This document shows, piece after piece, positions 17,375 to 63,858 of a DNA stretch of 64,000 nucleotides. The translations under genes and the position numbers were made by a program. Source of the stretch: Candidatus Altimarinota bacterium. Its GTDB lineage: Bacteria > Patescibacteriota > Gracilibacteria > CAIRYL01 > GCA-016699755. The stretch lies in assembly GCA_963664295.1 (NCBI GenBank), contig OY760935.1:973604-1037603 (forward strand), written 5' to 3'. The notes under the pieces are model-generated. The model ran no database searches. It worked only from the letters and a program-made list of their open reading frames with translations, and was not told the DNA's origin. How positions within the stretch are numbered: position 1 is the first letter of the stretch; each line of letters opens with the position of its first letter.

Positions 17375-17417
17375 AAAATCAGCTAAAATAAGCTAGCTCT
17401 TTGAAAAAGTGTATTTT

Positions 17418-17491
17418 GGCGACGTGGCCAAGTGGTAAGGCAGGGGCCTGCAAAGCCTTTATCGGCGGTTCGATTCCGCCCGTCGCCTCCA
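17418..17491 (+). tRNA. tRNA-Cys (GCA), CCA encoded
   Basis: Cloverleaf folded by hand. Acceptor GGCGACG/CGTCGCC, anticodon loop CTGCAAA, T-loop GGTTCGATTCC, 3' TCCA. Confidence 0.92.
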
Positions 17492-17495
17492 CCTT

Positions 17496-17580
17496 GCCGG
17501 GGTGGTGGAATGGTAGACACGAGGGACTTAAAATCCCTTGAGCAATGCTCGTGCGGGTTCGAGTCCCGCCCCCGGCACCA
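17496..17580 (+). tRNA. tRNA-Leu (TAA), long variable arm, CCA encoded
   Basis: Acceptor GCCGGGG/CCCCGGC, anticodon loop CTTAAAA, variable arm GAGCAATGCTCG, T-loop GGTTCGAGTCC. It starts 4 nt after tRNA-Cys. Confidence 0.92.
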
Positions 17581-23600: not shown

Positions 23601-24525
23601 CTTAGGGCTTTTTCATGCACTATTAAGTACAGCAACAGATTTGACCACTGGTGATAAATATAGAGCAACTTTTAGTACTGCTACAGGAGAAAGTATTTTA
23701 GAAGAAAAAATAGACACTCGTAGAAAAATTTGGGAAGCAATTTTGATGCAAGAGGAGGTGTTTGCTCCCCCAAAAGATCCTTCATTAAGTTCAAAATATT
23801 TATTTTATCGCATGCTTTTTATAAAAAATAGCACAGTTGATTTTATAGGCACAGATTTTGACCAAATTCGTAACACATTAAAGCTTTCTTCTAATTTTGC
23901 CACAGCTATGGTTTATAGAGAAAAATTAATACAAAAAGGTGTGACAAGTTCTGTTTTTGAGATCGGAGGTGGTACTTTTGATTTAATTAAAGACTTTAAA
24001 GTATCAGATCCAAATATTGTATTAAAGATTGCTTTTTGGATGAAAAATGAAACAGAAACATATAAAGAGACTGAAGGCATAATTGAAAAACAAACAGAAC
24101 CAAGGCTTGCCAAGAATCCTTTAGTTTATGCTCTTTATGAGGCTGGCACATACCTTGGCTATGTGGGTGATGGCTCTTTAGAGAGCTTACAAGAGTTTTT
24201 TAATGAAGAACGTAAAAGCGAAAGAGGTGTTTATTGGAATGTTGACAAAGGGGCATGGTATGTTAATGAGGCAGGCTTGGAGTTTGACAATAAAGTAGGT
24301 GTTGGTGGGTATAGAACAGCAATAAACACTATTAAAACTTTGGAAAGCGAAAGTGATGATGTACTTGAGCATAGAGCCCAAAAAGTGGCAGATGCTTTTG
24401 CGGGTAGTGGCTATACAGATGTTTTAAAAAATCAAACCTTAATTATTATAGAAAAAATGAAAGAAGGCCTAAAGAAGTGGCAGGCTCAGGTTAGAGCAGA
24501 ACGAAAGGCAAGAAAAAGGCAATAA
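20599..24525 (+). CDS. Giant (1308 aa) orphan polytopic membrane protein
   Basis: A continuous ORF with many hydrophobic or Gly/Ala-rich helices (for example IKVGIGVVGISLAY, IAGIAGVGSALWL, AVAGSTILAWWF, FVVMGAGAFTIW, FFIGIGTTVGGVFGGVPGA, GLAVANGILLATSS). These are interspersed with soluble segments. No catalytic motif recognised. Confidence 0.6.
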   Translation: MSKIFDTAVEMLAGKEQSPEEKDQSILQSFDLKAQTESAKGVLGSVWEVTKETTNDAFEWLKKNKKDVIKVGIGVVGISLAYKFIRGLFGDKEGGSGNKEGGGLFGWLKEAVGIKKIAGIAGVGSALWLTQKILKGDLVPVIKWFEKKAGILGDEKAKEHLTELVGEKNANRVIEATSAVLHPVETLSDTVDKAKAWCAEHGVSADWLPDPKKLYTDYIQKYPTMATAAVAGSTILAWWFTKDILKFLIKSVFSPKKLLALTAITGLSMILFGKTDFIAKKLQEIGININDYNKDGKINFSDIAIEIAKKGIEAIKWLRGQIGLFLDKLGFNNNAQFVVMGAGAFTIWKTRRFLLGASKFAVSAAPFLAITTALLCLLQDDAVADEKLETEEDKRKFLDKYLEKILQETTDPEIKEILKNNKNEVVNFFMNPKDFSYEHQGGTFDTIVSCTNFVGDFCAAMGESAGSLLDALAENGDANKHTIEFIKEKNETGFSLFDIVGFFRAMYRDGTEILIADGMVSCAMKGARGVVWTVMTSVDVTVDAIKDAILENPFEGVKTYVKGSAFFIGIGTTVGGVFGGVPGALKGFKQGALLPGKITIGAGVKLAKTPKQIQRVIEEAPEWKALKATNVKNKFKGIRFASFLKNHQEEAYFKFLQKTYKDAYRNYAFYSGLNPWTDEIGDEWSFKKSANKWKAKMADLTKKIETHKYYVPSKHDGLVKELGQEVLNDPELKNIYRQRATRLKNIKIGAEFTQGKKIYQVAQYIPEKDEVVLYELGKNKIKRMPAKHLPKEAFKNGKIRAVGKVTGRMVEAGRKGAGKATATAKAGVANVGNAGKEALEAVADTKIGRIAQKTGKVLGSGVDTVAERTGAKAVARFMEKTKIVKVAGKLAGPVAIGYELYTAIKEETTAEKEKNEAIRDLKKGKAKMHAGLAVANGILLATSSTVDATALAAGSATAASIGLAGAGAVAIESWRYVYDGAMDSAEENLKQASDWVTEHDRLGLFHALLSTATDLTTGDKYRATFSTATGESILEEKIDTRRKIWEAILMQEEVFAPPKDPSLSSKYLFYRMLFIKNSTVDFIGTDFDQIRNTLKLSSNFATAMVYREKLIQKGVTSSVFEIGGGTFDLIKDFKVSDPNIVLKIAFWMKNETETYKETEGIIEKQTEPRLAKNPLVYALYEAGTYLGYVGDGSLESLQEFFNEERKSERGVYWNVDKGAWYVNEAGLEFDNKVGVGGYRTAINTIKTLESESDDVLEHRAQKVADAFAGSGYTDVLKNQTLIIIEKMKEGLKKWQAQVRAERKARKRQ

Positions 24526-27124: not shown

Positions 27125-27172
27125 GCTTATTAGCAATTTTAATTCCAAGCTTATTAGCAATTTTAATTCCAA
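27125..27172. repeat. 24-bp tandem duplication (x2) spanning the stop codon of the SLH surface-protein gene
   Basis: GCTTATTAGCAATTTTAATTCCAA occurs at 27125-27148 and again at 27149-27172. The second copy contains codons ...I-W-N-stop of the minus-strand gene. Confidence 0.85.
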
Positions 27173-30100
27173 ATTAAGCCATAAATTATTTTTGTAGCTT
27201 GTGCGCGAGTAAGATTATCATTTGGTTTAAACTCTGTGTCTGAAAAACCTTTTACAATACCCAATTCTTTTGCTTTTTCTACCCACGTGATCTGCCATGA
27301 ATCCAAATCTTTAAAGTCTGATTTCTTTTTTGAGCCTTTTAGTCCCTTGATGGTTAGCAGGATTTTTAAAGCTTCAGCGCGGGTAATGTTGTTTTCTGGT
27401 CTTAATGTGCCATCATTATAACCCTTAATGGCATTTTTATTTTTTGCAAATTGTGCATAAGGCGCTAGTTCGTGGTTTGTGGGAATATCTATAAATGGAT
27501 TTTGACTTACTGTTGGCAAGGCTTCTTCTCTTAGTGCATCCACGGCCATTTGCAGAAAATCACCACGAGTTATGGCTTTATTAGGATAAAACTTTTTATT
27601 ATCCTTAATAACACCAAATAATTTTAATTTTATTATATATTCTGTTGCCCACTCAGCATCTTTTAGGTCTGAAAATATTTGACTCGTTCCTCTTTTAATT
27701 GGTGAACTGCCATTTTTTATTTCTTCATTGTCATCATGGCCATCGTTATCAGAGTCTATATTTTCTTCATCTGTACCTAAAAAGTGCTCTTCAATATTGC
27801 TTAATCCGTCACCATCTAGGTCGTCTTCGCTTGTTGTATAGCCTTCTTCTGCGTTGTTTTCTTCGTTTTGATTATCATTACTGTTATCATTTTCGTTTTC
27901 ACTGTTTCCCCCGGTTTTTTGGAGCAAGTCTTCATCAATAGAAACATCCCCAAGCTGATTTACAACAATGCTTTTGCAATAGTCCACCCCATTTTCCCCA
28001 TCTTCGCCTTGACCGTTGATACAAAAAATAGTTGGATTTCTTATTTCTACTGTTTCGGAATTAATTTTTGATTTATTTTTAATGATTACGCCGTTGTTGT
28101 TGCCAAAATCAAGAGCCCTTACAGCAAATTGATTATTGTTTTTTGGATCAAAAGACAAAGATATTTTTGAATTATCAGTTAAAAATGGCAACAAATTGCC
28201 CTCTATTTTATATTCATCACCCTCTTCGTCTTCTGTTAATGGCATTTCAAATGGCGGAAAAGATAGATAAACAATGTTTTTTGTTGTTCTTATAAAAGCA
28301 GGTCCAGCAACTTCTTTGCTACCTTTTTTGAGATATATTTCGCTAAATGGTGCTATTTTTAATTTATCTATTGCAAACTCACTTTCAGGATCTCCTTCTT
28401 CAAAATTTAACTCAAGCTCCATTTGCTGTATTGCCAGATTAGAAACAAAGTTTTTAATATTTAAATTAGCAAGCACAAGCTCTTCTTGCTTTTCTTCTAT
28501 AATTGCTGTTTTTTCCTCTGTTTCAAGTTTCTGAAAACTAAATTCAAGATATGCACTATCAGAAGGGGCTATTTCAAGGTCAAATCCTTCACTAATTTTT
28601 TCTTCTGGATAAGTTGCCTTAACTCGCAAAGACCCACTTTTTGCGTCTTCTGGAAGAATAGCAGTAATTTTTTTGCCACGACTATCAACATCAGTGACTG
28701 TTAGCTCGGACTTATTTAGTGTGACAACATTGTGTTTAATATTTGTTGGAAAGTTATAGCCATAAATTTCAACTTTTTTGCCACGCACTTTGCCTTCTGG
28801 GAATAAAACTTTTTTAATCATTGGCGCAGCATAAACCGCGGTAGGATGGTCAGATCCAAAGGGCACCTCTAAAACATTGCTTTTATTTTTACCTCTTTGG
28901 ACATAAATTTTAACAACTTTACTTGGTTCTTCGCTAAGCTCTACATCGGTGGAATCTTCTGGTAATAAAAATCCAGCCTCAATTTTTCCACCTGATAATT
29001 TTACCCCGTCCAAGCCAATATTTTTGTCCAATTTAGCTCCGGAAACACTTAATTTAATGTCGCTAGTGTCGTTGCCAAAACCTGAACCGTATATTGTAAA
29101 AGGTGTGCCTTCATGGAAGCCATATTTGTCTTCTATTTTATAAATTCTTGGCTCCAAATTTTCTTCCAAATCATATTCAAATGGATTGGATTGATATTTT
29201 TCGTAGGCTGTTATTAAAATTTCACCTTTTGTTTTAATGTCATTTTCAGTGTTAATGCGAATTTTGTTATATACTGTGCTAAATTCGTCTTGGCCAATTT
29301 TTTTGCCACCTATTTTAATTTCAATATCGTCTTCATTTGTTGGTAAGTTGTTAGCAAAAATATCTAAGATTTTTTCCTGTCTTTTATCGCTTATATATTC
29401 AATATTTGTTATTTCTACTGGATCTGATTTTTCGTAAACCAAAATATTGCTTTCTGTTTTATCAACCACAACTTTTATTAAAGAAAGTGGAGGTAAGGGC
29501 TTTGGTGCCTCTGCTTCTATGATAATTTTGCCATAATGGTTTTCGTAAATTTGTTCTGGTGTGACAGATTTATTATTAAATTTAACTTTTACTTTTTTTG
29601 TGTCATTAGGAATATTTTCAGCTACAATCTTAAAAAGATCCTTATTATCATCACTCACACCTTTTTCCACAGAAATATTTTGTATTATTGGAGGGAAAAT
29701 TTTGGACATTTTTAATTCATTACTTTTTAAGCCATCACGAATAATTTCTATATCTTTTTGGTATTTTAAGCGCGGTAGTTTAAAACTAATTAAATTATCA
29801 GTTATTTTATAGTTTTTAAGTCCGCTCAGGCTTATTTCGGTGTCAACAAATAGTCCGGAGAAATTTTTGCCATGGATTTCAACCTCCTTACCAGGCAAAA
29901 TTCCGTCTTTTCCGTAAACAAAATAAATTTCTGGTGCTGGCACATCAACATAAAAAGGATCACTTTCCACTATTTCTTTTTTGTATTTTATTTCTACTCT
30001 TATATTGCCGGACTTTGTGTCTTCATCAAGACGCACAGCCATATGATCAAATACAACATATTCAATGTCACTACTAACATTCAGCTCTTTGTTGTCAGGA

Positions 30101-30348
30101 CCTGTGACATATACCTTAACTGTTGAGTCGTTGGCAAATTGTTCAAAATTTCTTCCTGTAATAACCATTAAAAAATTTTTTGCCTTTTTGTTTTCTTGAA
30201 AGGTGACATTGTAAATTTCCGGCTTACTTAATAACCCTTCTTCACCGTCTTCCTCTGCTTTTACATAACAGCAGGAAAAAACAAGAACAAAGCTTGTTAG
30301 TAAGGCAATAATTCTTTTTGTGTTAAACATATTTTTTAAATATATCAA
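27163..30348 (-). CDS. Large S-layer-homology (SLH) anchored surface protein with repeated IPT/TIG-like Ig domains and an acidic Ca-binding-like linker
   Basis: Signal peptide, then repeated about 85-aa units (P.I..V....G..G..V.I.G.NF). Next come an Asn/Asp/Glu-rich DxDxDG-type stretch (DDLDGDGLSNIEE...DSDNDGHDDNEE) and three C-terminal SLH motifs (FSDL...ITRGDF, FIDI...ITRAEALK, FKDL...LTRAQA). Confidence 0.8.
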   Translation of the reverse strand: MIYLKNMFNTKRIIALLTSFVLVFSCCYVKAEEDGEEGLLSKPEIYNVTFQENKKAKNFLMVITGRNFEQFANDSTVKVYVTGPDNKELNVSSDIEYVVFDHMAVRLDEDTKSGNIRVEIKYKKEIVESDPFYVDVPAPEIYFVYGKDGILPGKEVEIHGKNFSGLFVDTEISLSGLKNYKITDNLISFKLPRLKYQKDIEIIRDGLKSNELKMSKIFPPIIQNISVEKGVSDDNKDLFKIVAENIPNDTKKVKVKFNNKSVTPEQIYENHYGKIIIEAEAPKPLPPLSLIKVVVDKTESNILVYEKSDPVEITNIEYISDKRQEKILDIFANNLPTNEDDIEIKIGGKKIGQDEFSTVYNKIRINTENDIKTKGEILITAYEKYQSNPFEYDLEENLEPRIYKIEDKYGFHEGTPFTIYGSGFGNDTSDIKLSVSGAKLDKNIGLDGVKLSGGKIEAGFLLPEDSTDVELSEEPSKVVKIYVQRGKNKSNVLEVPFGSDHPTAVYAAPMIKKVLFPEGKVRGKKVEIYGYNFPTNIKHNVVTLNKSELTVTDVDSRGKKITAILPEDAKSGSLRVKATYPEEKISEGFDLEIAPSDSAYLEFSFQKLETEEKTAIIEEKQEELVLANLNIKNFVSNLAIQQMELELNFEEGDPESEFAIDKLKIAPFSEIYLKKGSKEVAGPAFIRTTKNIVYLSFPPFEMPLTEDEEGDEYKIEGNLLPFLTDNSKISLSFDPKNNNQFAVRALDFGNNNGVIIKNKSKINSETVEIRNPTIFCINGQGEDGENGVDYCKSIVVNQLGDVSIDEDLLQKTGGNSENENDNSNDNQNEENNAEEGYTTSEDDLDGDGLSNIEEHFLGTDEENIDSDNDGHDDNEEIKNGSSPIKRGTSQIFSDLKDAEWATEYIIKLKLFGVIKDNKKFYPNKAITRGDFLQMAVDALREEALPTVSQNPFIDIPTNHELAPYAQFAKNKNAIKGYNDGTLRPENNITRAEALKILLTIKGLKGSKKKSDFKDLDSWQITWVEKAKELGIVKGFSDTEFKPNDNLTRAQATKIIYGLIWN

Positions 30349-35390: not shown

Positions 35391-38300
35391 ATGAAAAATA
35401 CAGCTAATAAACGACCTGTTGATAGTTGGGAATCAGCTGGTACCCAAAAAAAACAGGAAAATTTGCGCTCTATTGAGGGTGGTATTAGTTCAGAAATGGC
35501 AACTGCTGAAATAACCGTTGAAAGAGAAAGAGCAAAAACATCATTAGGTGTTGAAAGACAGCTTGCTGTTTTGCCTAGTCTTGTTGAGGATAAGACGGCG
35601 TCATTAACTGATCAGCAAAAAAAATTGGCTCAAAGATATTGTTTTGTGAGTAATAAGGCTCAAGAAAGTGATGAAAAATTAGAACAAGCAGAGGCTCGAC
35701 TTTTAGAAGCAGAGCAAAAATTAACAAACAATAGTTTGCCTGCGAAATATCAAAAACAGGTAAAAGCTGAATTAGAAAACGCACAAAGAGCTTATGAAAA
35801 AGCAAAAAAAGCACAAGAAAAAGATAGCGAGAGATTACAAAAATTATTAAACCAAAATGGTTTTACAACATTAGTAAGTGATCTTGATTTAGATAACCCA
35901 AAAAATAAGCAAGCAATTGCAGGAGAAGTTAATAGGAGTAATGTTCATAAAATTAAAGCAAAAGAGGGCGTATTGTCTGTTGCAATGGGTAAATTAAGCT
36001 TAGCAACATTAACACCGCTTAATGCAGGTGAGATAGCACACGCTATTCGTTATTGCGTACCAAGAGACAAAAGGTCTCGTATGTTAAATAATGTTTATTT
36101 ATATAACTCAAGAGCACTTGCTGTTTGTGAGCTACATGAAGAAATACATGAACTTGATAAAACAATAATTCCTCTTCAAAAAGCAATGGAAGAAGTTGGG
36201 GTTAATGACCCAAAATATGCTGAATATGAAGATCGTTTGGTAAAAGCAAATAAAAAATCAGAAGTGCTCAATGAAAGGCTTCTTAAGTTATTAAAAAAAG
36301 GCGATCGTTTGCACGGTGCTATTTTTTCTGCACTTAAAAAAGTAGGCGTAGAAATTGAGCAAAAAGAAGAAAGCGAGGCTAGCATCAAAGCTAGCCAACA
36401 AGGAATATTGAATTCATTTAAAGGCCTAGAAACAAAATTGAAAGCAGGAAATGTTTCTGCAAAAAAAATGGAAGCAGACTTGCAACCTATAATGACTCAT
36501 TTGTTGTTGTTGCGCGGTGTTACACAAAACGCGAAAGACGGCAAGTTGAACCTAAAAGCAAAAGAACAAAAAGCTTTTGAAATACTTGGTGATAAGTTGC
36601 CTATAATTGAAGATGCGCTTAATAGCATTCTTGATACACTTGAAGAATCGGAACAAGCGCAAAAAACAAAAAAAGGATTTCTTTCGAAAGTTAAAGGTTT
36701 TTTGCGTAAACCTAAAGCAAAAAAAGTGGCAAAAGTGGCAATGTTAACTATGGCTACTCTTTCTGTTAATAGTGGCATCATCACTGATGCGGTATCTGAT
36801 TTTTTTAGTGAATTAAACGACTTGGACTTAGGCGATAGTGATTTTGCAAAAGCTTTGCAAAATGCTTTTGCAGGTTTGGCAGATGGTTTAGACAATATTG
36901 GCGACTCCGCACTTGCTTCAGAAAGTACTACCTTGAGTAGTGGCGTAAAAGCTGAACAAATTAAAGAAGGTGATACGCTGGGGCAAATTGCTGACAAAAT
37001 GAGTGTAGATAATTGGCAGAATTTGCAAGTTAGTGAGGACGGAGGTCAAACATGGACTAGTGCTGAAAAAATAAATGAATATGCTATTCAGCCAGGTTGG
37101 TTAGTGGCTACTGATGGCGCTCAGCAAAGTGCGCCAATAATAAGTAATGATTACCAGACCGAAACTGTTAAAAAAGGTGATTACCTTTTTAAGATGTTAG
37201 ATAGAATGCCAGGGGCTAATTCTTTAGATGACTTAGAAATTAGCATGAATGGCGGGGTTAGCTGGACAAGATATGGTGATTTTAATAATCCTAATTACTT
37301 AGAACCAGGCTGGCAAGTAAGGACAGCAACGCAAAACATTTCAACTCAAACAGCTAGCTTTACAGAGACGCACATTGATCCTCCTCAAAACACAGAACAA
37401 ATAGAGGTAGTTGAAAATAGTGGTGAAATTAAATTAAGAGCATCAGCGTCAGTAAAAGAAGCAAACTTGCCACAAGCAAGACCTCAAGCAAAAGAAATTA
37501 TTAGAGCAGATATTGGCACAGCAACAAAAGTAGATTCTGCAACAATTATTGTACCAGGCGAAAATGACGATATACCAGGTCAAATGGAAAGAAGATTGGA
37601 TCCTGTAAACATGCCACAAACAGAAAGAACATTTTTTAATGGTAATGTTTTAGTTGGCGGTGGGGTTAGTTATTTTAATGGACAAGTAGGCTCTCATGGC
37701 GAGGCCTATGCCGGCGGTGATCATTTTGCTATTGGCGCTGAAGCAGGTTATGCAAGTGATAATGCCTATGCAAGCCCTAGCGCTGGTTATTTTTCAGATA
37801 ATTTTGATTTAGCAGTAAAAGCCATGTTTGCTAAAGGCAAATTAAAATCAGCTTTAAGTTTGCCAAATGGTGATCATGTATTTGAAACTGAACACACAAA
37901 AACAGGTGTTGGGTCTCATTTAGGAGTAAACCTTGGTTCAGGACCAGTTAAGAGAGCAGAAGTTACGCTTGGTTATGAAAAAACATCAAGTGAAGATGCT
38001 GGAAGTGCATCTTTTAGGGCTGATAATGGAGATTTGTTTAAATATGATGTAAAAGCAGAAGGTGCAACTGAAAAGTTTGGCAAAGTTAATCTTATTAGCA
38101 ACCCCTTTCAGCTTGGCGGAGGTTGGACAGCAAATTCTAATGTTGGAGTTTTGCATGAAAGCTTAAACTTTGATGAGCCTACAGGATATAAATTAACAGA
38201 TAATGGTGAAGATTTTACAACTCCTGTTGTAGGAGCTTCTGTTGAAAGTAGTGGAAAAACCCAGTGGAAGTTTGCAGGAGAAATGGGTGCCAATTATTAT

Positions 38301-39494
38301 GAATTATCAGCCGGAGTGCGAGCTAAAGGTTGGCAAGCAGGTGTACAGACCAGACACACAGATATTCAAGACAGCATTAAGGCTAACTTGGGGATTAATC
38401 TTACTGAAAAAGCTCAACTTAATATTGAAGGTGGAGCAACAAATATAACAGACGATATGGTTATGGAGCCTGATAATTATTATGGTCAAATTGGCGTAAG
38501 CATTCCTTTGGGTGGCTCTAAAGAAAAGTCAGTAAAACCAGTTGTAGCCTCAGCGATAGACAGCTTAAGACAAACAGTTTTTACTCACTTAGGACATATT
38601 GATCCAAAGCCAAAAGCGACTATGGCTATTAAAAAAACAGAAAAAGCAAATGAGGGTCCAGGGGTAATGATTATTGGTGCAAACAGAACGGTTCCAGGAA
38701 AAGCAGAAGAGTACATTGCTTCAGCATATGATTATGAGGGAGACAAGATTGTAAGTTATGATTTTAAAATTGTTAGCTCTACAGGTTTTGATGGTGGCAA
38801 TATCGCTTATTGGCAACATTTTGTAGGTGAGCCACACAAAGTGAGTCTTAAATTCTCAACTCCTGACTCAGGAAATGGTAGTGCTACATTGCAATGTGTT
38901 GTCACTGATGAATATGGTAATTCAACAACAGAAACACTTTTAATTACAATTTCAGAAGGACAAAATCCAAGAAATCCTAGTAGCAACCCAAATGTTAATC
39001 CTAAAGACGACACAGACCCAGGAAACCCTGGTAGTGACCCAAATGTTACTCCAAATGATCCAAGCAACACAGGTGATCCTAGTATTCCACCAGTAACTCC
39101 TGGAGATGGACAAGACACAGAAAATCCTAGCACTCCACCAGTAACTCCTGGAGATGGACAAGACACAGAAAATCCTAGCACTCCACCAGTAGGCCCTGGA
39201 GATGGACAAGACACAGAAAATCCTAGCACTCCACCAGTAGGCCCTGGAGATGGACAAGACACAGAAAATCCTAGCACTCCACCAGTAACTCCTGGAGATG
39301 GACAAGACACAGAAAATCCTAGCACTCCACCAGTAACTCCTGGAGATGGACAAGATTCAGGTGATCCTAGCACTCCACCAGTAACTCCTGGAGATGGACA
39401 AGACACAGAAAATCCTAGCACTCCACCAGTAGGCCCTGGAGATCCAAACGATCCAAATCAACCAACTACACCACCATTTACACCTTTTGAATAA
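35391..39494 (+). CDS. Giant (1367 aa) orphan envelope protein: coiled-coil N-terminus, one TM, two LysM-like repeats, beta-barrel-like Gly/Ala/Tyr-rich segment, Ig/PKD-like domain, Pro/Thr/Gly/Asp tandem-repeat tail
   Basis: A continuous ORF. TM at VAKVAMLTMATLSVNSGII. The repeats are IKEGDTLGQIADKM...IQPGWLV and VKKGDYLFKMLDRM...LEPGWQV. It has alternating-pattern strands (VTLGYEKTS, WKFAGEMGANYYELSAGVRA...) and the segment YDYEGDKIVSYDF...LQCVVTDEYGNSTTETLLITI. The tail is about 7.7 copies of a 16-aa repeat. Confidence 0.65.
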   Translation: MKNTANKRPVDSWESAGTQKKQENLRSIEGGISSEMATAEITVERERAKTSLGVERQLAVLPSLVEDKTASLTDQQKKLAQRYCFVSNKAQESDEKLEQAEARLLEAEQKLTNNSLPAKYQKQVKAELENAQRAYEKAKKAQEKDSERLQKLLNQNGFTTLVSDLDLDNPKNKQAIAGEVNRSNVHKIKAKEGVLSVAMGKLSLATLTPLNAGEIAHAIRYCVPRDKRSRMLNNVYLYNSRALAVCELHEEIHELDKTIIPLQKAMEEVGVNDPKYAEYEDRLVKANKKSEVLNERLLKLLKKGDRLHGAIFSALKKVGVEIEQKEESEASIKASQQGILNSFKGLETKLKAGNVSAKKMEADLQPIMTHLLLLRGVTQNAKDGKLNLKAKEQKAFEILGDKLPIIEDALNSILDTLEESEQAQKTKKGFLSKVKGFLRKPKAKKVAKVAMLTMATLSVNSGIITDAVSDFFSELNDLDLGDSDFAKALQNAFAGLADGLDNIGDSALASESTTLSSGVKAEQIKEGDTLGQIADKMSVDNWQNLQVSEDGGQTWTSAEKINEYAIQPGWLVATDGAQQSAPIISNDYQTETVKKGDYLFKMLDRMPGANSLDDLEISMNGGVSWTRYGDFNNPNYLEPGWQVRTATQNISTQTASFTETHIDPPQNTEQIEVVENSGEIKLRASASVKEANLPQARPQAKEIIRADIGTATKVDSATIIVPGENDDIPGQMERRLDPVNMPQTERTFFNGNVLVGGGVSYFNGQVGSHGEAYAGGDHFAIGAEAGYASDNAYASPSAGYFSDNFDLAVKAMFAKGKLKSALSLPNGDHVFETEHTKTGVGSHLGVNLGSGPVKRAEVTLGYEKTSSEDAGSASFRADNGDLFKYDVKAEGATEKFGKVNLISNPFQLGGGWTANSNVGVLHESLNFDEPTGYKLTDNGEDFTTPVVGASVESSGKTQWKFAGEMGANYYELSAGVRAKGWQAGVQTRHTDIQDSIKANLGINLTEKAQLNIEGGATNITDDMVMEPDNYYGQIGVSIPLGGSKEKSVKPVVASAIDSLRQTVFTHLGHIDPKPKATMAIKKTEKANEGPGVMIIGANRTVPGKAEEYIASAYDYEGDKIVSYDFKIVSSTGFDGGNIAYWQHFVGEPHKVSLKFSTPDSGNGSATLQCVVTDEYGNSTTETLLITISEGQNPRNPSSNPNVNPKDDTDPGNPGSDPNVTPNDPSNTGDPSIPPVTPGDGQDTENPSTPPVTPGDGQDTENPSTPPVGPGDGQDTENPSTPPVGPGDGQDTENPSTPPVTPGDGQDTENPSTPPVTPGDGQDSGDPSTPPVTPGDGQDTENPSTPPVGPGDPNDPNQPTTPPFTPFE
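39071..39443 (+). repeat. 48-bp (16-codon) in-frame tandem repeat, about 7.7 copies, coding STPPV[T/G]PGDGQDTENP
   Basis: Units start at 39087, 39135, 39183, 39231, 39279, 39327, 39375 and 39423 (partial). There are only two variant blocks: GTAACTCCT vs GTAGGCCCT, and GACACAGAAAAT vs GATTCAGGTGAT. Confidence 0.95.
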
Positions 39495-45547: not shown

Positions 45548-48226
45548 TTATTCACTAACAATAATAGTGACAGAAATTTGACCAACTTCATTGCCATAAA
45601 TACCAACACCAAGATTTTGCCAATTTTCTTCTAGTAAAATATTATCACTTTCTTGGTTATTAAGATTAATTTTTATTTCAGAAAAAGAGCTTATTAAAGA
45701 GCTAAATTGTTCAACTTTAAAAATTAAGGCACTGGATTTTGTTTGTATGCCAGCATTTTCCAGCAAGCTCTGTAAAGAGTCACCATCTGATGAGCTAAAA
45801 TCAAAAAAATCAGAGTCGCTCATTTTTTTTGACCAACTTTGAGCAATGCTCTGCAGGCTTACATTAGGTATTAAGGGGTTATTGCGAATATCATTTACAG
45901 TTTTTAAAATTTGATCTCTATAAGAAGCCAAATTGTTGTTATCAAACGGTTCTTCGGAAAAAAGTTCAACAACAATAATTTCCCCGCTTTCTCTTTTTGC
46001 TAAGCCAATGCCAACTTCTTGCCAGTTTTCATTAAGAATGTTGCGTCTGTGAATAGGACTACGCATTAAGCCATTATGAGCAAGGCTAAGGTTTATGTCC
46101 ATGGCAATATTTTCAAAAACACCGGTTTTTACTGCATGTTCAACACGATAATCATTTGCGTCTTTGCCATCAGGGTCTGTATGGGCAAAATAATTTCTTT
46201 CTTGCATGTCACTTGCTCTGAATTGAGCTAAGGCATTTAAATTATCATTAAGCTCAACTTTGGTCAGGCCAGCCTTTGCTCGGGAAGAGTTAACCATAGA
46301 TAATAATATTCTTCGATCTGCGCTAAGATTTATGTTTTCAAGAGGATCTTGTGGTTCAGACACACGATAATCTGGTAATAGTGGCACAAATCCTTTTTGT
46401 ACAACAGGTGCGTTAATAATTGCAAATCCACCAGTGTCATTGATTTCAATAATATAAGTTCCTACTTCTGTTGGTGCGTAATTAAAAACAAAATCATTAC
46501 CATCAATACTCAGGGGTACGTCAATAATTTTTTCACTAGGCGTTATAATTGTTGCATTTTCTTTGAGGTTTACAGGGCTTGTTCCAGATATTTTTAAGTT
46601 TTGATTTTGAACATAATAAGGAGGCAGGTTGAGGTTGTTTATTTGTTCTTCAACTATTCTTTCATGCTCAATTACAGCATAAAAATCAACACTTACTGCA
46701 TCAGAAAATGTTTTATTTTGGCTATTAGAAAGGCTGTTTTCAAGGGGTGCGCCAGCAATTTCTACTGTCATAAAGCCTTCCTGAAAATTCTCAAAAATTT
46801 CAGTTGGTGTTTGAAATGAGTTTTGATTATTAACAAAAATCTCTATTGTTTCATTTTCTTGTGTAAATCTGAGCCTAAAGAGCTGGTTCCAATCATCTTC
46901 CCAAGAAAAAATTGCTTTGCCATTAATATTTTTAATAACAAAATTAGCAGGTTTACTTTGTGATTGTTCCTCAAAGTTTGGTTCACAAATAGGATCATAA
47001 ACAGTGATAGAGCCTATTTTGCTTTGACCGCTTGTGCCAGGGATCATTGCAATTTCGTGTTCACCAGCTTCATCACTAAAAGTAATTTGCACTTCAAAAC
47101 TATTGTTATACACAAGGCCTGAATATGTTTTTTTATCAATAAAAACCGTCACTTCATCAGCTACAACACCCGACCCTAGTTCACCTTTTATGGTATAAAT
47201 TTCATTTTTTCTAAATATTTTTGGAATATCATTATCCAAAATTAAGTTATTAAAAAAATCTTTTTCCAATAAATCATTTTCTGTATTTATTTGGCAAATT
47301 TCTTTGGTTGGTATGCCTGCTGGTGTATCTTCGGGCAATTCTTTGAGTCGCACATTAGCAAGACCACGAGAAAGAGGATAAATTGCCTCAAAAGCTATTT
47401 CTGAGAGATCAATAATTCTTCCTTCTGCATAGGGCCCTCTATCATTTATTTTAACTATAACAGACTTATTATTGTCTTGATTTGTGACGAGTATTTTTGT
47501 GCCAAAAGGAAAGGTTTGATGAGCAGCGGTATATTTATCTTGATCAAAAACTTCTCCATTGGCTGTATTACGACCTTCGAAAAAATCGGCTAAATAACTG
47601 GCGCCACCTTCGTCCGGATGATCATTTTCTTTCCATTTTTCTAGCCTATAAAATATTTCCGCAAGCTCTCCTCTGGTCATATCCTTTGCAGGTTGGGCGT
47701 AGTTTGGGTTGTCAAAAAAATTATTATTTTTTGCAAAAGCAAAATAAGACGCAAACCATTCATCAGCACCAATATCTAAATAAGGACTTTTTTCCGGTTG
47801 TTCAAGCTGAATTCCGTTTACAAGAATTAGCATTTTTAATGCTTCAGCACGATTTACTGTGCGGGTTGGCTCAAAATATCCCTCAGCAGTTCCCTTGATA
47901 ACGCCAAGGTTTTTAGCCTTAAAAACATAAGGGCTAAACCACTCATCCCTTGGTACATCTGGAAAAGGTTTGTCCGCAGGAATTCCTTCTGCTTCAAGTC
48001 CAGAGCCAAGAATTAAAATTTTTAATGCCTCAGCACGATTTACTTTTTGATCTGGCTTAAAACTGCCATCAGAAAAGCCGTTCAGCACTCCTTGATCACT
48101 TAAATAAGTAATTGCAGTAAAGTTTGTGTGCTCTGGGCTAACATCGGTAAAAAATTTAGCACTAACTTGAGCAGGCAAAGTTAGTGAAAATATTATTCCA
48201 AAAATAATTATAATTTTTTTCTTCAT
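45548..48226 (-). CDS. SLH-anchored multidomain wall protein: 3 N-terminal SLH motifs, RlpA-like double-psi beta-barrel, central Ig-like region, two CAP/SCP (YkwD-like) domains
   Basis: Signal peptide. SLH motifs (FTDV...VNRAEALKIL, FPDV...VNRAEALKML, YLDI...MTRGELAEI). RlpA motif (FEGRNTANGEVFDQDKYTAAHQTFPFGTKILVTN...VKINDRGPYAEGRIIDLSEIAF). CAP motif (NSSRAKAGLTKVELNDNLNALAQFRASDMQERNYFAHTDPDG). Confidence 0.8.
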   Translation of the reverse strand: MKKKIIIIFGIIFSLTLPAQVSAKFFTDVSPEHTNFTAITYLSDQGVLNGFSDGSFKPDQKVNRAEALKILILGSGLEAEGIPADKPFPDVPRDEWFSPYVFKAKNLGVIKGTAEGYFEPTRTVNRAEALKMLILVNGIQLEQPEKSPYLDIGADEWFASYFAFAKNNNFFDNPNYAQPAKDMTRGELAEIFYRLEKWKENDHPDEGGASYLADFFEGRNTANGEVFDQDKYTAAHQTFPFGTKILVTNQDNNKSVIVKINDRGPYAEGRIIDLSEIAFEAIYPLSRGLANVRLKELPEDTPAGIPTKEICQINTENDLLEKDFFNNLILDNDIPKIFRKNEIYTIKGELGSGVVADEVTVFIDKKTYSGLVYNNSFEVQITFSDEAGEHEIAMIPGTSGQSKIGSITVYDPICEPNFEEQSQSKPANFVIKNINGKAIFSWEDDWNQLFRLRFTQENETIEIFVNNQNSFQTPTEIFENFQEGFMTVEIAGAPLENSLSNSQNKTFSDAVSVDFYAVIEHERIVEEQINNLNLPPYYVQNQNLKISGTSPVNLKENATIITPSEKIIDVPLSIDGNDFVFNYAPTEVGTYIIEINDTGGFAIINAPVVQKGFVPLLPDYRVSEPQDPLENINLSADRRILLSMVNSSRAKAGLTKVELNDNLNALAQFRASDMQERNYFAHTDPDGKDANDYRVEHAVKTGVFENIAMDINLSLAHNGLMRSPIHRRNILNENWQEVGIGLAKRESGEIIVVELFSEEPFDNNNLASYRDQILKTVNDIRNNPLIPNVSLQSIAQSWSKKMSDSDFFDFSSSDGDSLQSLLENAGIQTKSSALIFKVEQFSSLISSFSEIKINLNNQESDNILLEENWQNLGVGIYGNEVGQISVTIIVSE

Positions 48227-56975: not shown

Positions 56976-58472
56976 ATGATTAAAAAAATAAACAGAGCGC
57001 TTGTTTCTGCTTTTAATAAAGAAGGCATTGTTGATTTTGTAAAATTTTTAGCCGATCAAGGCACAGAAATAGTCTCTACTGGAGGCACAGCAAAATTACT
57101 TCGAGAAAATAATATTGAAGTAAAAGATATTTCTGACTTAACAGGTTTTCCAGAGATGCTTGATGGCAGGGTGAAAACTCTTCATCCACGTGTTCATGGG
57201 GGCTTGCTTTATGTGCGCGGTAATCAAGAACACGAAAATACTATTAAAGAACATGACATTAAACCAATTGATTTAGTTTTAATTGATTTATATCCTTTTG
57301 ACAAAGTTGCGGAAGAGGAAAAAATAGAAATGATTGATATTGGCGGACCCTCCATGCTTCGCAGTTCAGCAAAAAACTTTGATAGCGTCACCGTAATAGC
57401 AAATAAAAATTATATGCAGGAAGTGCAGGCGGAAATTGAAAAAGAAGGAGGAACAACACTAGAAACACGAAAAAAATTAGCAGGAATTGCTTTTAAAACA
57501 ACATCGCAATATGATTCAAAAATTGCTGAATATTTTGATCCAAATTTCAAAGGAATATTTAATGAAAAAATTCAAGAACTTAGATACGGAGAAAACCCTC
57601 ATCAAACAGCAGGTTTTTACAAAAACCTAGGAGTTAATGTTAGCCCATCTATTGTTAATGCTAGGCAATTGCACGGAAAAGAGCTTTCTTTTAATAATAT
57701 TTTAGACGGCAATGCGGCATTGGAATTGGCTACTGAGTTTTCCGACCCCTTTTGTGCAGTCATAAAACATACTAATCCTTGTGGAGCTGCGGAAGCTGAC
57801 ACAATAGAAGAGGCTTTTGAAAAAGCTCACGCTGGCGATCCTTTGTCTGCTTTTGGTGGCATTATTGCAATCAATCGACCTTGCTCAAAAGAATTAGCAG
57901 AAAAAATATCCCAAGCAGGATTTTTTGAAATTATTATTGCTCCAAGTTTTGCCAGTGAAGCCTTGGAAATATTACAAAAAAAGAAAAATGTACGCCTCTT
58001 AGAGGTTGGTGAAATAAAACCAGTGCAAGACCAAAAAGACATCAGAAGTGTTTTGGGTGGATTTTTAATTCAAGATCGTGATGAAAAAATGTTAATAGAA
58101 AAAGATTTACAAGGAGCAGAAGTAGAAGATGTAAAAGATTTATTATTTAGCTGGAAAATTGTTAAATATGTAAAATCAAATGCAATTGCTGTGACAAAAA
58201 ATAGAGCGATTTTAGGCATTGGTGCAGGTCAAATGTCTAGAGTAAAGTCAATGGATATAGCCCTTGAAAAAGCAGGAGAAAAAGCAAAAGGAGCAATTTG
58301 TTCTTCTGATGCGTTTTTTCCATTTGCAGATTCTGTAGAATTAGCCTCAAAACACGGAATAAAAACAATAGTACAACCAGGAGGCAGTGTTCGTGATCCA
58401 GAAGTGCTAGAAAGTGCCAAAAAACTAAACATTAAAATGGTGCTAACTGGCACAAGGGCATTTAAGCATTGA
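56976..58472 (+). CDS. purH: Bifunctional AICAR transformylase / IMP cyclohydrolase
   Basis: ALVSAFNKEGIVDF, RVKTLHPRVHGGLL, KHTNPCG and QPGGSVRD. 498 aa. Confidence 0.95.
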   Translation: MIKKINRALVSAFNKEGIVDFVKFLADQGTEIVSTGGTAKLLRENNIEVKDISDLTGFPEMLDGRVKTLHPRVHGGLLYVRGNQEHENTIKEHDIKPIDLVLIDLYPFDKVAEEEKIEMIDIGGPSMLRSSAKNFDSVTVIANKNYMQEVQAEIEKEGGTTLETRKKLAGIAFKTTSQYDSKIAEYFDPNFKGIFNEKIQELRYGENPHQTAGFYKNLGVNVSPSIVNARQLHGKELSFNNILDGNAALELATEFSDPFCAVIKHTNPCGAAEADTIEEAFEKAHAGDPLSAFGGIIAINRPCSKELAEKISQAGFFEIIIAPSFASEALEILQKKKNVRLLEVGEIKPVQDQKDIRSVLGGFLIQDRDEKMLIEKDLQGAEVEDVKDLLFSWKIVKYVKSNAIAVTKNRAILGIGAGQMSRVKSMDIALEKAGEKAKGAICSSDAFFPFADSVELASKHGIKTIVQPGGSVRDPEVLESAKKLNIKMVLTGTRAFKH

Positions 58473-58657: not shown

Positions 58658-59740
58658 ATGAAAACATTTTTTTGCAAAATAGCCCTGTCAATTTCCATTT
58701 TTGTTTTGTGTTTTAGTTTTGTCACTAATGCAGAAGCCTATGGTAGTAGTAACAACAGAGGTGGCACAGGTAGTGCTGATATTGGTGTTTGTGGTGGTGC
58801 AAATACACCATCTTTTTCTGACATTGAACCTATTAAAAACGCAAATTTAAACAGCTTAAACGAAGTAAGTTTTATTGTCACAGGTAATGATATCAATAAA
58901 GAAAGCATTAGTATTTCTGTTGAAGGCGAAGCATTGCAATTAAACATTAGAGAGTTATCAGATAGTACATTTTTGGTAGAAGGTGATACAAGTGGTTTAA
59001 ACCTTGAAGATGGCCTAGTTTATATTTCATTATCAGCCACAGGAGGAAGGGAGTGCTTAAAAACAAGTTCTTATTTTGTAGAGTTAGATAAAAAAGGAGA
59101 ATTACCAAAAGACCCAGATGACACAGATGATGATGACGATGGAGACACAGGTGATGATGGTGATACAGGTAGTGACGACGACGATGATGATGAATTTAGC
59201 GCAAAAGACAAAGGCCATTGGGCATTTACTTATGCAAAAAAATTAGTTAATAGAGGTGTTTTAACAGGTGATGGAGAAACTGGAGAGCTAAGACTTGATG
59301 ACCCAATTCAACGCATAGAGTTGTTAGTAGCTGTTATGAGAGCTTTCCGAGTTTCAGTGCCAAGTTTCCTTGAGGAAAAGCCGTTTAATGATGTGCCAGC
59401 TGACGAATGGTTTGCGCCTTATGTTGCAAAAGCAAAAGCATTAGGCTGGGTAGATGGTTATGAAAATGGAAAATTATTTAAGCCAGGAGCTGGGATAACC
59501 AGAGCAGAAGCATTAAAAATAATTTTTATGGTTGCAGGAATAGATGCAGAATATACCAACACACCTTTTATTGATGTCGACGAAAATGATTGGTTTGCAC
59601 CTTATGTTGCCTGGGCTTTTGATAGACAACTAGTAGAAGGCTATGGAAATAATAAAAATCTTTTTAGGCCAGACAGAGAAATTACAAGAGGAGAAATATC
59701 AAAAATATTGGTTAAACTTCTAGAGTACCTTAACCTTTAA
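58658..59740 (+). CDS. SLH-anchored secreted protein with poly-Asp linker
   Basis: Signal peptide (...TNAEA) and an Ig-like N-terminal domain. An acidic run follows (DPDDTDDDDDGDTGDDGDTGSDDDDDDE), then three SLH motifs (FSAKDKGHWAF..., FNDV...ITRAEALKI, FIDV...ITRGEISKI). Confidence 0.8.
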   Translation: MKTFFCKIALSISIFVLCFSFVTNAEAYGSSNNRGGTGSADIGVCGGANTPSFSDIEPIKNANLNSLNEVSFIVTGNDINKESISISVEGEALQLNIRELSDSTFLVEGDTSGLNLEDGLVYISLSATGGRECLKTSSYFVELDKKGELPKDPDDTDDDDDGDTGDDGDTGSDDDDDDEFSAKDKGHWAFTYAKKLVNRGVLTGDGETGELRLDDPIQRIELLVAVMRAFRVSVPSFLEEKPFNDVPADEWFAPYVAKAKALGWVDGYENGKLFKPGAGITRAEALKIIFMVAGIDAEYTNTPFIDVDENDWFAPYVAWAFDRQLVEGYGNNKNLFRPDREITRGEISKILVKLLEYLNL

Positions 59741-61199: not shown

Positions 61200-61277
61200 G
61201 GCGACTGTAGCTCAGTTGGTTAGAGCGCCGGATTGTGGCTCCGGAGGTCGTGGGTTCGAACCCCATCAGTCGCCCCA
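61200..61277 (+). tRNA. tRNA-His (GTG) with encoded G-1 and CCA
   Basis: G-1 at 61200 lies opposite discriminator C. Acceptor GCGACTG/CAGTCGC, D-arm GCTCAGTTGGTTAGAGC, anticodon stem CCGGA/TCCGG with loop TTGTGGC, T-arm GTGGG-TTCGAAC-CCCAT. Confidence 0.92.
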
Positions 61278-61670
61278 TGAATATCTTTAAACATGTGCCA
61301 CAATCAAGATTGCGTCTTCGCGGAGCTAGTGGTTATCTACCCCCATCAGTCGCCCCATGAATATCTTTAAACATGTGCCACAATCAAGATTGCGTCTTCG
61401 CGGAGCTAGTGGTTATCTACCCCCATCAGTCGCCCCATGAATATCTTTAAACATGTGCCACAATCAAGATTGCGTCTTCGCGGAGCTAGTGGTTATCTAC
61501 CCCCATCAGTCGCCCCATGAATATCTTTAAACATGTGCCACAATCAAGATTGCGTCTTCGCGGAGCTAGTGGTTATCTACCCCCATCAGTCGCCCCATGA
61601 ATATCTTTAAACATGTGCCACAATCAAGATTGCGTCTTCGCGGAGCTAGTGGTTATCTACCCCCATCAGT
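61261..61670 (+). repeat. Five perfect 80-bp head-to-tail repeats plus a 10-bp partial sixth; copy 1 begins inside tRNA-His (its last 17 nt)
   Basis: The unit is CCCCATCAGTCGCCCCATGAATATCTTTAAACATGTGCCACAATCAAGATTGCGTCTTCGCGGAGCTAGTGGTTATCTAC. It occurs at 61261, 61341, 61421, 61501 and 61581, and the copies are identical by eye. A partial CCCCATCAGT lies at 61661-61670. Confidence 0.97.
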
Positions 61671-61739
61671 TTTTTGGCTTGCACAGCTGATTAACAGCCA
61701 TTAAACTAAAATGCGTTATATTGTTTTTTAAAAACAAAA

Positions 61740-62138
61740 ATGAACAGCAAATCCCCTAACTTAAGAGTGTTATTAGTTTGCAAACAAGAAGAAGAGGATT
61801 GCTTAAAAACAGAACAAAAAGAACAAGAAACAATAAACCCAATTGAAAAAATAATTGAACAAACACAAGAAATAATGCGAAGTAATACAAAAAGTTTTCC
61901 GCTTGAAATTGGACTTCATTTACACAAAGCAGGGAATGGTTGTTCTGCACAAGATGAACAAAAAATGTTGGAAGAAATTGTCAAATCTCCAGAAAATTTA
62001 ATTTTAATGACAAGAGCAGTAAAATTATCAGAACCTTGGAAAAGTTTGATGAAAAAAAATGTTTTTATGCTTGATGAACTAAGCCCAGTTCATATTATGA
62101 TTATGATTAAGGGCTATCTTGCCTCCATAAGACTTTAA
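61740..62138 (+). CDS. Hypothetical orphan protein in the tRNA-His/tRNA-Ile islet
   Basis: 132-aa ORF that is hydrophilic with no recognised motif. Coding status uncertain. Confidence 0.35.
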   Translation: MNSKSPNLRVLLVCKQEEEDCLKTEQKEQETINPIEKIIEQTQEIMRSNTKSFPLEIGLHLHKAGNGCSAQDEQKMLEEIVKSPENLILMTRAVKLSEPWKSLMKKNVFMLDELSPVHIMIMIKGYLASIRL

Positions 62139-62195: not shown

Positions 62196-62272
62196 GGTCG
62201 TATAGCTCAGCTGGTTAGAGCGCTACACTGATAATGTAGAGGTCCCTGGTTCAAGTCCAGGTACGACCACCA
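62196..62272 (+). tRNA. tRNA-Ile (GAT), CCA encoded
   Basis: Acceptor GGTCGTA/TACGACC, anticodon stem CTACA/TGTAG with loop CTGATAA, T-arm CCTGG-TTCAAGT-CCAGG. Confidence 0.92.
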
Positions 62273-62467: not shown

Positions 62468-62764
62468 ATGGTAAAGATTAAGAATTTAAACAAATTAGAC
62501 ATGCTGGCTTGTTTTTTAGTTGGACAAAAAAATAGCATAAATGATGCCCCTGAGGAAAAATTTTTAGTTTTAACATATTGGACATCGTGCGCAAATGTTT
62601 CTGTTATTTTTGCAACTATTTTTTCAAGTATGTCTATTGTTTTGTTTATAGAAATAGAAACTAATCTAGTTGTAATTCCTTTTTTTATAGCCTTTATATG
62701 GTTTTCTTTGAGGGCTTGGGCATTTGGTAGATGTGCTAAGATTGCATGTAAAATTTGGCTTTAA
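62468..62764 (+). CDS. Hypothetical small membrane protein (2 TM)
   Basis: 98-aa ORF with two hydrophobic helices, convergent with thyX. No motif recognised. Confidence 0.35.
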   Translation: MVKIKNLNKLDMLACFLVGQKNSINDAPEEKFLVLTYWTSCANVSVIFATIFSSMSIVLFIEIETNLVVIPFFIAFIWFSLRAWAFGRCAKIACKIWL

Positions 62765-62780: not shown

Positions 62781-63485
62781 CTACAGCCTACTCTTCAGCT
62801 CCCCTCCCTCAATAGCCTTCCATTTTCCACAACTCATATCACCTTCCCAACAGATTTTTTCAGTTTCACAACTAGGTCCAGCATGAGAAAAAATCTCAGG
62901 ACAAGTAGGCTTAACAGCCTCAAGCATTTTTCGTGCAAGCATTTGAATCTCCCATTGCGCACGCACACAAAGCCTTTTTTCAAAAAAGTGCAACAGCTCA
63001 CGCGCATTCATAGTGACAACAATGTTTGTTTTTGTGCCCTGTGGGGTCAAAAAACGCGCATCCTCGCTTTTAATTCCTAATTCCTTTAATTCATCCACAG
63101 TCTCCTGCAAAGAGCTCTTAAATTTATCCACCAGCGCCATTGCTTGTGGGTTATTTTTAATCGAAGGCGGTATGACAAAATTTGTATGAGTTTTGTTATA
63201 GCGACCTGATTTTATTGAATAGCTTGCCAGCCTGTGGCGCACAAGTTGAGTTTCGGTCACACGAGAAACTCCAGAAATAGAAAAAGTAAAAGTAGCGTGT
63301 TCTATGGTTGATAAATGACCAGAAGAAAGCACAATATTAAGTAATCTTTTTGCTTTATCCTCAGGAATGCTTTCTTGCAATTCTTTTCCGGTTTTTGGCG
63401 AATAACATTGATTAATAGCCGCAGCAATTGTTTGCAAAGGCTTAGAAGTGTGGTCAATTAAATAAACTTCAATTTCTGAGCTCAT
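62781..63485 (-). CDS. thyX: FAD-dependent thymidylate synthase
   Basis: ThyX motif QLVRHRLASYSIKSGRY (RHR...S....S.R). 234 aa. Confidence 0.92.
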   Translation of the reverse strand: MSSEIEVYLIDHTSKPLQTIAAAINQCYSPKTGKELQESIPEDKAKRLLNIVLSSGHLSTIEHATFTFSISGVSRVTETQLVRHRLASYSIKSGRYNKTHTNFVIPPSIKNNPQAMALVDKFKSSLQETVDELKELGIKSEDARFLTPQGTKTNIVVTMNARELLHFFEKRLCVRAQWEIQMLARKMLEAVKPTCPEIFSHAGPSCETEKICWEGDMSCGKWKAIEGGELKSRL

Positions 63486-63492
63486 ATTTTAT

Positions 63493-63858
63493 TTAAACAT
63501 CAAGGGAATCAATTGCTTCTTGAATTGTTGGGTGATATTCGACCAAATTTAAAAAACCAACAACCTCAAGAATATCTAAAATCGTATCATTACTTTCAGC
63601 TAAAACCATTTTTTTACCATCTTGATTTAGAGTGGAAAAAACCTCAGCCAAAAAACCAACAACCATTGAGTTGATAAACTCCAAATCACGCAAAAAGAAA
63701 ATAAAAGTTTTTACATCTTTTGTTTGCAAGTATCTATTTATTTCTTTTTTAAACTCATTGATTGATGACTCATCGACTTCTCCTGCAATATGAATAATGC
63801 GAACGCCTTCCTTTTCGTTCACTGGTATCATTCTGGATTTAAAATTCACTACAGACAT
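63493..63858 (-). CDS. STAS-domain protein (anti-sigma-factor antagonist type)
   Basis: 121 aa. IIHIAGEVDESSINEFKKEI...IFFLRDLEFINSMVVGFLAEVF...KKMVLAESNDTILDILEVVG shows the SpoIIAA/RsbV topology, with a conserved Ser context (INSMVVG). Confidence 0.75.
   Translation of the reverse strand: MSVVNFKSRMIPVNEKEGVRIIHIAGEVDESSINEFKKEINRYLQTKDVKTFIFFLRDLEFINSMVVGFLAEVFSTLNQDGKKMVLAESNDTILDILEVVGFLNLVEYHPTIQEAIDSLDV

Follow-up and report, generated by a model that had tools for sequence, protein, structure and literature searches.

A perfect 80-bp tandem array at the 3′ end of a bacterial tRNA-His gene, most likely a minisatellite with a tRNA-derived seed

The window studied here, a stretch of 64,000 nucleotides from contig OY760935.1 of a Candidatus Altimarinota bacterium, contains an intact tRNA-His(GTG) gene that runs into an array of five identical head-to-tail 80-bp units. 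The first unit overlaps the 3′ end of the gene, and every unit carries a decayed copy of the 3′ half of the same tRNA. We read this array as a lineage-specific minisatellite of the variable-number tandem repeat (VNTR) type, built from the 3′ end of tRNA-His and its trailer, and we give this reading a probability of about 0.6. The evidence found points to no new genetic system: the array is most likely an ordinary minisatellite specific to its lineage, unusual in that its seed derives from a tRNA, and it is most likely devoid of a dedicated function. The observation made in an earlier note on this DNA is thus confirmed, and its interpretation is partly supported, namely in the tRNA-fragment anatomy of the unit and in the reading as a copy-number-variable repeat.

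The array and the anatomy of its unit

The tRNA-His gene is recognized by both ARAGORN and Rfam (Table 1), and the sequence encodes G-1 at 61200 as well as the CCA end at 61275–61277. Tandem Repeats Finder (TRF) delimits an array with a period of 80, 5.1 copies, 100% matches, 0 indels and a score of 820, and a script check showed that the five 80-mers are identical to one another. The earlier note had described a tRNA-His followed by a perfect 80-bp array, each unit of which starts with the exact last 17 nt of the tRNA, and both statements are borne out by these programs. The first 17 nt of the array are the overlap with the 3′ end of tRNA-His; this 17-mer, CCCCATCAGTCGCCCCA, comprises T-loop nucleotide 60, the 3′ strand of the T-stem, the 3′ strand of the acceptor stem, C73 and CCA. 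At this locus, the 3′ segment of a tRNA is therefore directly repeated behind the intact gene. The 5.1 copies of the note are also the TRF figure, but with a correction at the end of the array: the last partial copy consists of the 10 nt CCCCATCAGT and is followed by TTTTTGG, whereas the internal copies continue CGCCCCA. The array is non-coding. It is intergenic, between tRNA-His and a 132-aa open reading frame (ORF), its period of 80 cannot be divided by 3, and none of the ORFs under translation table 11 or table 25 spans it from end to end.

The unit can be written as 63 + 17, with a 30-nt spacer, a 33-nt pseudo-half and the 17-mer. Five copies of the 63-nt non-tRNA part are present, without a mismatch among them (0 in 100 shuffles). 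Within it, the 33 nt GATTGCGTCTTCGCGGAGCTAGTGGTTATCTAC are collinear with tRNA positions 31–60, from the anticodon loop to the T-loop, with about 70% identity and three 1-nt indels. When the alignment of these 33 nt is anchored on the 17-mer, it scores 10, compared with −32 ± 7 for dinucleotide shuffles, and none of 5000 shuffles reaches this score. The unit thus contains a decayed tRNA-His 3′ half. The resemblance that the earlier note had seen is real, but the alignment is not strictly position for position as it had stated, owing to the three indels and to a pseudo T-loop that is 1 nt longer than the T-loop of the real tRNA-His. The unit has no 5′ acceptor strand, and its pseudo anticodon arm and pseudo T arm are degenerate.

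The G+C content of the 30-nt spacer, TGAATATCTTTAAACATGTGCCACAATCAA, is like that of the genome. We considered whether this spacer could be what is left of the 5′ half of a second, decayed tRNA and rejected the idea, as 7/30 positional matches (hand count) correspond to random sequence. The claim that about 30 nt of the unit are unrelated to the tRNA accordingly holds for collinear similarity, but not entirely, since the spacer contains GCCACAATC, whose reverse complement is exactly the anticodon loop of tRNA-His plus two stem nucleotides. This 9-nt segment is found in every unit, complements positions 61231–61239 of tRNA-His and lies 2 nt ahead of the GATTGCGTC of the pseudo-half, the pair forming an imperfect palindrome; it should be noted that the match (p about 0.007) was picked out post hoc. 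The G+C content of the unit is 47.5%, compared with 33.8% for the window and 27–29% for the immediate flanks, in line with the hand count of about 47% within AT-rich flanks. The 50 tRNA-derived nucleotides of each unit are 58% GC, and the raised G+C content of the array is entirely due to them rather than to a foreign origin.

Related loci and searches for the unit elsewhere

The nearest protein relatives of the window are metagenome-assembled genomes (MAGs) labelled Candidatus Gracilibacteria. The PurH / FtsX-type permease / tRNA-His neighbourhood is kept among relatives. The closest relatives that could be compared have 68% identity in the permease and 81% in ThyX. The earlier note had raised the possibility of units at the tRNA-His loci of relatives, and there are none at those that extend beyond the gene. 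No repeat follows tRNA-His in L002 and L003 (permease 52% identical), where the downstream sequence is unique and unrelated, or in L031 and L032 (permease 45% identical), where the next gene comes almost immediately. In the closest relative (L001, permease 68% identical; Logan ERR15087771, 1–45) the contig stops within tRNA-His, at the anticodon loop, and another contig (L030) ends 127 nt before the permease and has no tRNA. As a side observation, the tRNA-His locus tends to be a point of breakage in assemblies from this lineage, as seen in these last two cases. The tRNA-His genes of the relatives differ from that of the window at only two positions, which make up a single compensatory pair in the anticodon stem. 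The decay of the pseudo-half is far greater than this divergence among orthologous tRNA-His genes, which argues for an old fragment and a young amplification.

The unit was also sought in broader collections. Exact scans with three different segments of the unit found nothing in IMG/VR viral contigs or JGI metagenome contigs, and blastn found no match to the unit in INPHARED phages or PLSDB plasmids. No phage, plasmid or other mobile element with a matching attP attachment site was found in IMG/VR, INPHARED, PLSDB or the JGI metagenome contigs. The architecture itself, searched for as the 17-mer followed by 45–75 nt and the 10-mer, had no match in metagenome contigs. A degenerate pattern of the palindrome gave 75 viral matches, close to the estimated chance number, none of them longer than 18–20 nt. 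Seven viral contigs of IMG/VR contain the 17-mer; they are high in G+C and unrelated to the unit. The 21-nt 3′ end of tRNA-His is common to 19 species-representative genomes, and no second copy was found downstream in any of the 18 that offer at least about 170 nt of downstream sequence (the remaining one, L012, offers only 24 nt). An Erysipelotrichaceae MAG (L029, 2023–2274) appeared at one point to be a recurrence of the arrangement and was rejected: what it carries is a tandem pair of complete tRNA-His genes. About 100 nt separate the two, and each is preceded by AT-rich, promoter-like sequence.

Two of the seven viral contigs with the 17-mer, L007 (5250–5360) and L009 (minus strand, about 1140–1250), contain a tRNA-His 3′ half whose first part is the anticodon loop, and no complete tRNA gene is called in either. 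They resemble typical phage attachment (att) sites for the tRNA-His of other bacteria, and they indicate that fragments with a boundary at the anticodon loop are generated by integrating elements. Finally, we found no description in the literature of a short-period array of tRNA 3′ ends in bacteria, although the full-text searching was narrow and this is weak evidence.

Proposed origin and alternative explanations

The end of the array suggests how it may have arisen. We infer an ancestral locus made up of tRNA-His, a 30-nt spacer and an old, decayed tRNA-His 3′-half fragment, which would have spanned the anticodon loop to the acceptor stem and ended in ...CCCCATCAGT followed by TTTTTGG; under a slippage model, this single-unit state would read tRNA-His + 63 nt + CCCCATCAGTTTTTTGG. 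The CCCCATCAGT of the fragment would then have been a 10-nt direct repeat lying 80 bp downstream of the same 10-mer in the real tRNA-His, and would have seeded the array. Slippage or unequal crossing-over between the two 10-mers would have duplicated the 80-bp interval, and two 80-bp copies would have allowed homologous misalignment to raise the count up to five, with the copies kept identical by recent expansion or by homogenization. The pseudo-fragment itself would most simply be the remnant of an earlier integration into this gene, or else of a partial gene duplication; an att relic would be a reasonable origin for this single ancestral fragment only. Such a model explains why the internal junctions continue CGCCCCA, as on the tRNA side, while TTTTTGG is kept by the last copy only. 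It also explains why the copies are identical even though the pseudo-half is old, and why the real tRNA-His gene is intact. A terminal CCCCATCAGT followed by TTTTTGG, as opposed to CGCCCCA inside the array, is the signature expected of recombination between two short direct repeats.

Bacterial minisatellites, such as the mycobacterial interspersed repetitive unit (MIRU)-VNTR loci of Mycobacterium tuberculosis, are intergenic tandem repeats of roughly 40–100 bp. VNTR loci arise, and change in size, through slippage or unequal recombination; most are specific to a lineage and without demonstrated function. Like them, the array is intergenic and arranged head to tail, its period is in the tens of base pairs and its copies are near-perfect. 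Its repeat period, copy identity and location are those of a minisatellite; the practical hallmark of a VNTR is copy-number polymorphism. The array differs from a typical VNTR in that a functional tRNA gene shares its 3′ end with the first repeat and that two-thirds of the unit is tRNA-derived. A parallel can be drawn with animal mitochondrial genomes, in which tandem duplications with partial or pseudo tRNA genes are known, as are the tandem-duplication/random-loss model and control-region repeats; several mitogenome papers report tandem repeats alongside tRNA-His. In both cases a slippage-type duplication would have captured part of a tRNA gene and left pseudo-tRNA repeats beside the functional one, although the mitochondrial examples arise under the replication and repair regimes of an organelle and the present one lies on a free bacterial chromosome.

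The array is neither a CRISPR array nor an array of tRNA genes, nor is it a recognizable structured RNA. As in L029, the sequence of the tRNA-His 3′ end recurs shortly downstream of the gene; however, both copies in L029 are complete and recognized by ARAGORN, whereas the units here have the 3′ 17 nt and a decayed 3′ half, and no tRNA is called in them by ARAGORN or by Rfam, whether at the gathering score or at E ≤ 10. Unlike in a CRISPR array, there is no variation among the ‘spacers’, and the Pfam scans of the ORFs of the window brought up no cas-type family. A ribozyme or other known RNA motif in the unit was likewise considered and rejected, nothing being found in Rfam at E ≤ 10.

Several points weigh against the minisatellite reading. 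The single-unit ancestral state is seen in no relative, and the contig of the closest one (68% permease identity) stops inside tRNA-His. Identity in the terminal copy drops abruptly from 10/10 to 0/7 (CGCCCCA against TTTTTGG), unlike what uniform decay would produce, and a later deletion or some other history behind this copy is possible. Finding 400 bp of non-coding array is somewhat surprising in so compact a genome (1.2 Mb). The 9-nt match to the anticodon loop, post hoc as it is (p about 0.007), has no place in the model. The copy number comes from the assembly, and it may be heterogeneous in the population. Moreover, the lack of predicted structure and of conservation does not prove a lack of function.

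This dependence on the assembly bears on the possibility that the copy number is an artefact, with one or two real units and a repeat loop that was traversed repeatedly or a gap that was wrongly closed. The copies are 100% identical, as they would be if they came from a cycle in the assembly graph, the 80-bp period is smaller than typical short reads and k-mer sizes, and the contigs of two relatives (L001 and L030) end at or just before the locus. Yet the usual error of De Bruijn assemblers with perfect tandem repeats is to collapse them, not to expand them, and a single contig of 1,215,430 bp suggests long reads or curation. The asymmetric end also makes biological sense, with a 10-nt partial copy and then unique sequence. 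Any loop would in addition have needed at least one full unit and the partial copy, and the pseudo-fragment is real regardless. We consider an artefact of this kind to be unlikely.

The earlier note had also proposed a stack of att sites or a cassette-docking array. A site-specific recombinase could build such a stack by repeated integration, by attL × attR recombination between sister chromosomes or by the docking of cassettes. Integration sites in tRNA and tmRNA genes were reportedly surveyed by K. P. Williams in 2002. An identity block from the T-loop to the 3′ end of the tRNA is the classical location of integrase crossover, unit homology starts at the anticodon loop as in the phage-borne tRNA-His 3′ halves of L007 and L009, and the locus adjoins a rearrangement junction. 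A duplex circle of 80 bp is, on the other hand, too stiff to be a plausible integration substrate. The best documented comparison is the ssrA gene of Dehalococcoides, where 20-bp repeats of the 3′ end bound tandem, non-duplicate islands within 100 kb, many of them with an integration module, and where the T-loop is the inferred insertion site (PMC3146451). As there, an identity block (17 nt here, 20 bp in ssrA) that extends from the T-loop to the 3′ end recurs behind a gene that is itself intact. However, the ssrA repeats are kilobases apart and bound different islands, kilobases long and non-duplicate (PMC3146451), whereas the repeats here are separated by 63 bp of DNA that is identical in all five copies.

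The array lacks three defining features of the att family: a recombinase (in 64 kb), kilobase-scale foreign DNA and a matching attP. The Pfam scan of all 43 ORFs of at least 150 aa, and of three small ORFs at the array, found no integrase, recombinase or transposase family in the 64 kb, in agreement with the earlier note, which had none in view; the DNA visible 3′ of the array amounts to 2.3 kb only, and a more distant integrase is possible. Together with the absence of the unit from the viral, phage, plasmid and metagenome collections searched, this makes an att stack quite unlikely.

Another proposal was that the units act as small RNAs. Co-transcribed with tRNA-His, they could be mimics of its 3′ end, or sponges whose GCCACAAUC pairs with the anticodon loop; they might be decoys for processing enzymes, HisRS, the CCA-adding enzyme or an anticodon nuclease, or might control the maturation of tRNA-His. 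Read-through is plausible, as no terminator pattern is found from the tRNA to the end of the array, which is followed by a T6 run; a consensus pattern scan found neither a promoter nor a terminator inside the array. Each unit ends with the authentic 3′ acceptor strand, discriminator and CCA, and contains the 9-nt exact complement of the anticodon loop (34/5000 shuffles), which the minimum-energy fold of the read-through transcript pairs, as GCCACAATC, with the real anticodon arm. The T-arm/acceptor minihelix suggested in the earlier note cannot form, however, because the units have no 5′ acceptor strand. The unit folds no better than shuffled sequence, with z-scores of +1.36 and +1.08 for two rotations and +0.25 for the minus strand, and the z-score is −0.12 for the end of the array and +2.1 for the whole hypothetical tRNA-plus-array transcript. 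The score is thus positive for every rotation and strand of the unit and for the whole transcript. The unit has no Rfam match and is not conserved in relatives, its pseudo anticodon and T arms are degenerate, its identical copies fit a recent expansion better than a selected RNA family, and the 9-mer was noticed post hoc. Functional RNAs are therefore very unlikely. A dosage-variable version, in which units displaying the tRNA-His 3′ end and the 9-nt anticodon-loop complement would titrate tRNA-His, its enzyme or a nuclease, or would gate maturation, seems to us barely probable at all.

The array could also act at the level of DNA, as a contingency or regulatory element made of five phased protein-binding sites, or as a variable spacer that tunes read-through into the orphan ORF. 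Perfect minisatellites readily change in copy number, each spacer contains short palindromes (for example ACATGT and TGTGcCACA), and the array is placed between the tRNA and an ORF that starts 70 nt beyond it. Chance alone should nevertheless give palindromes of 4–6 bp in 63 nt, the ORF beyond the array is without a homologue and is perhaps not a gene, and the locus shows no conservation in relatives and no linked transcription factor, so that we regard such an element as highly improbable. Of the three explanations in the earlier note, only that of a copy-number-variable tandem repeat fits the evidence, any contingency function being hypothetical.

Genomic setting and significance

The window comes from a genome assembled as one contig of 1,215,430 bp. 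Gracilibacteria are known for reading UGA as glycine, and code 25 (UGA = Gly) was considered here on account of the Gracilibacteria relatives. It was rejected: TGA is a stop in this genome, where PurH (56976–58472) ends in TGA and 3/3 genes checked have no in-frame TGA. The long ORFs of the window appear under table 11, and the genome probably belongs to a standard-code lineage of the Gracilibacteria class. In the Pfam scan, the ORFs corresponded to housekeeping, envelope or pilus genes, or were unmatched.

The surroundings of the array have been rearranged. Four related loci from at least two relatives (L033/L034, L035 and L036) have Lactamase_B / NTP_transferase / DnaN / Mfd / tRNA-Cys / tRNA-Leu directly after STAS-ThyX. 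In the window, ThyX (62781–63858) faces tRNA-Ile and the array instead of the Lactamase_B block, and this block, from Lactamase_B to tRNA-Leu, lies at 8.7–17.6 kb (8743–17580) on the opposite strand. A segment of about 54 kb thus appears to be inverted relative to the relatives. The right-hand junction of this inversion falls within about 1.5 kb of the array, and the inversion may be origin-proximal, DnaN being within the block. The 132-aa ORF that starts 70 nt beyond the array has no homologue, itself alone being found among 5.8 billion protein clusters, and may be either an orphan gene or non-coding sequence that fills the rearrangement junction. With a synteny breakpoint and an orphan ORF beside the array, the locus is an unstable intergenic patch.

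Some other features of the window may be mentioned. A second ORF flanking tRNA-Ile (62468–62764, plus strand) has no Pfam family. Very large or SLH-domain envelope proteins are encoded at 20599–24525, 35391–39494 and 58658–59740 on the plus strand and at 27163–30348 and 45548–48226 on the minus strand. The 1367-aa ORF at 35391–39494 (plus strand) and a 1308-aa protein have no Pfam match whatever. The former contains a 48-bp tandem repeat (39076–39443; 7.7 copies, 93% matches), which reads in frame as 16-aa repeats with much Pro, Thr, Gly and Asp; the product is probably a surface protein.

Table 1. Positions of the tRNA-His gene, the array, the parts of its first unit and the neighbouring features in the window
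Feature	Position	Strand	Evidence or remarks
Intact tRNA-His(GTG) gene	61200..61277	+	ARAGORN 61201–61277; Rfam RF00005 61201–61274, 71.4 bits
80-bp tandem array, 5 full units + 10-nt partial, 100% identical	61261..61670	+	TRF, per-copy identity
Shared 17-mer CCCCATCAGTCGCCCCA (T-loop nt 60 to CCA)	61261..61277; again at 61341, 61421, 61501, 61581	+	Sequence
AT-rich 30-nt spacer of unit 1, TGAATATCTTTAAACATGTGCCACAATCAA, 30% GC	61278..61307	+	Sequence, alignment
GCCACAATC, exact reverse complement of tRNA-His anticodon loop + 2 stem nt	61297..61305	+	34/5000 shuffles
Decayed pseudo-tRNA-His 3′ half of unit 1, GATTGCGTCTTCGCGGAGCTAGTGGTTATCTAC, 33 nt	61308..61340	+	Alignment, anchored shuffle test
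Terminal partial copy CCCCATCAGT, 10 nt	61661..61670	+	Sequence
T6 run directly 3′ of array	61670..61675	+	Sequence; pattern scan called no terminator there
132-aa orphan ORF, array to tRNA-Ile	61740..62138	+	No Pfam family
tRNA-Ile(GAT)	62196..62272	+	ARAGORN; co-directional with tRNA-His here, convergent in relative L002

Annotators should be aware that arrays such as this one look like stacked att sites and can interrupt or distort an assembly at a tRNA gene. The array would gain more biological weight only if its units were expressed and acted on tRNA-His. If the minisatellite reading is true, it has little such weight, but would be a clear case of a relic tRNA fragment that has seeded a minisatellite beside its parent gene, in a small Patescibacteria-type genome in which the array could serve as a strain-typing marker.

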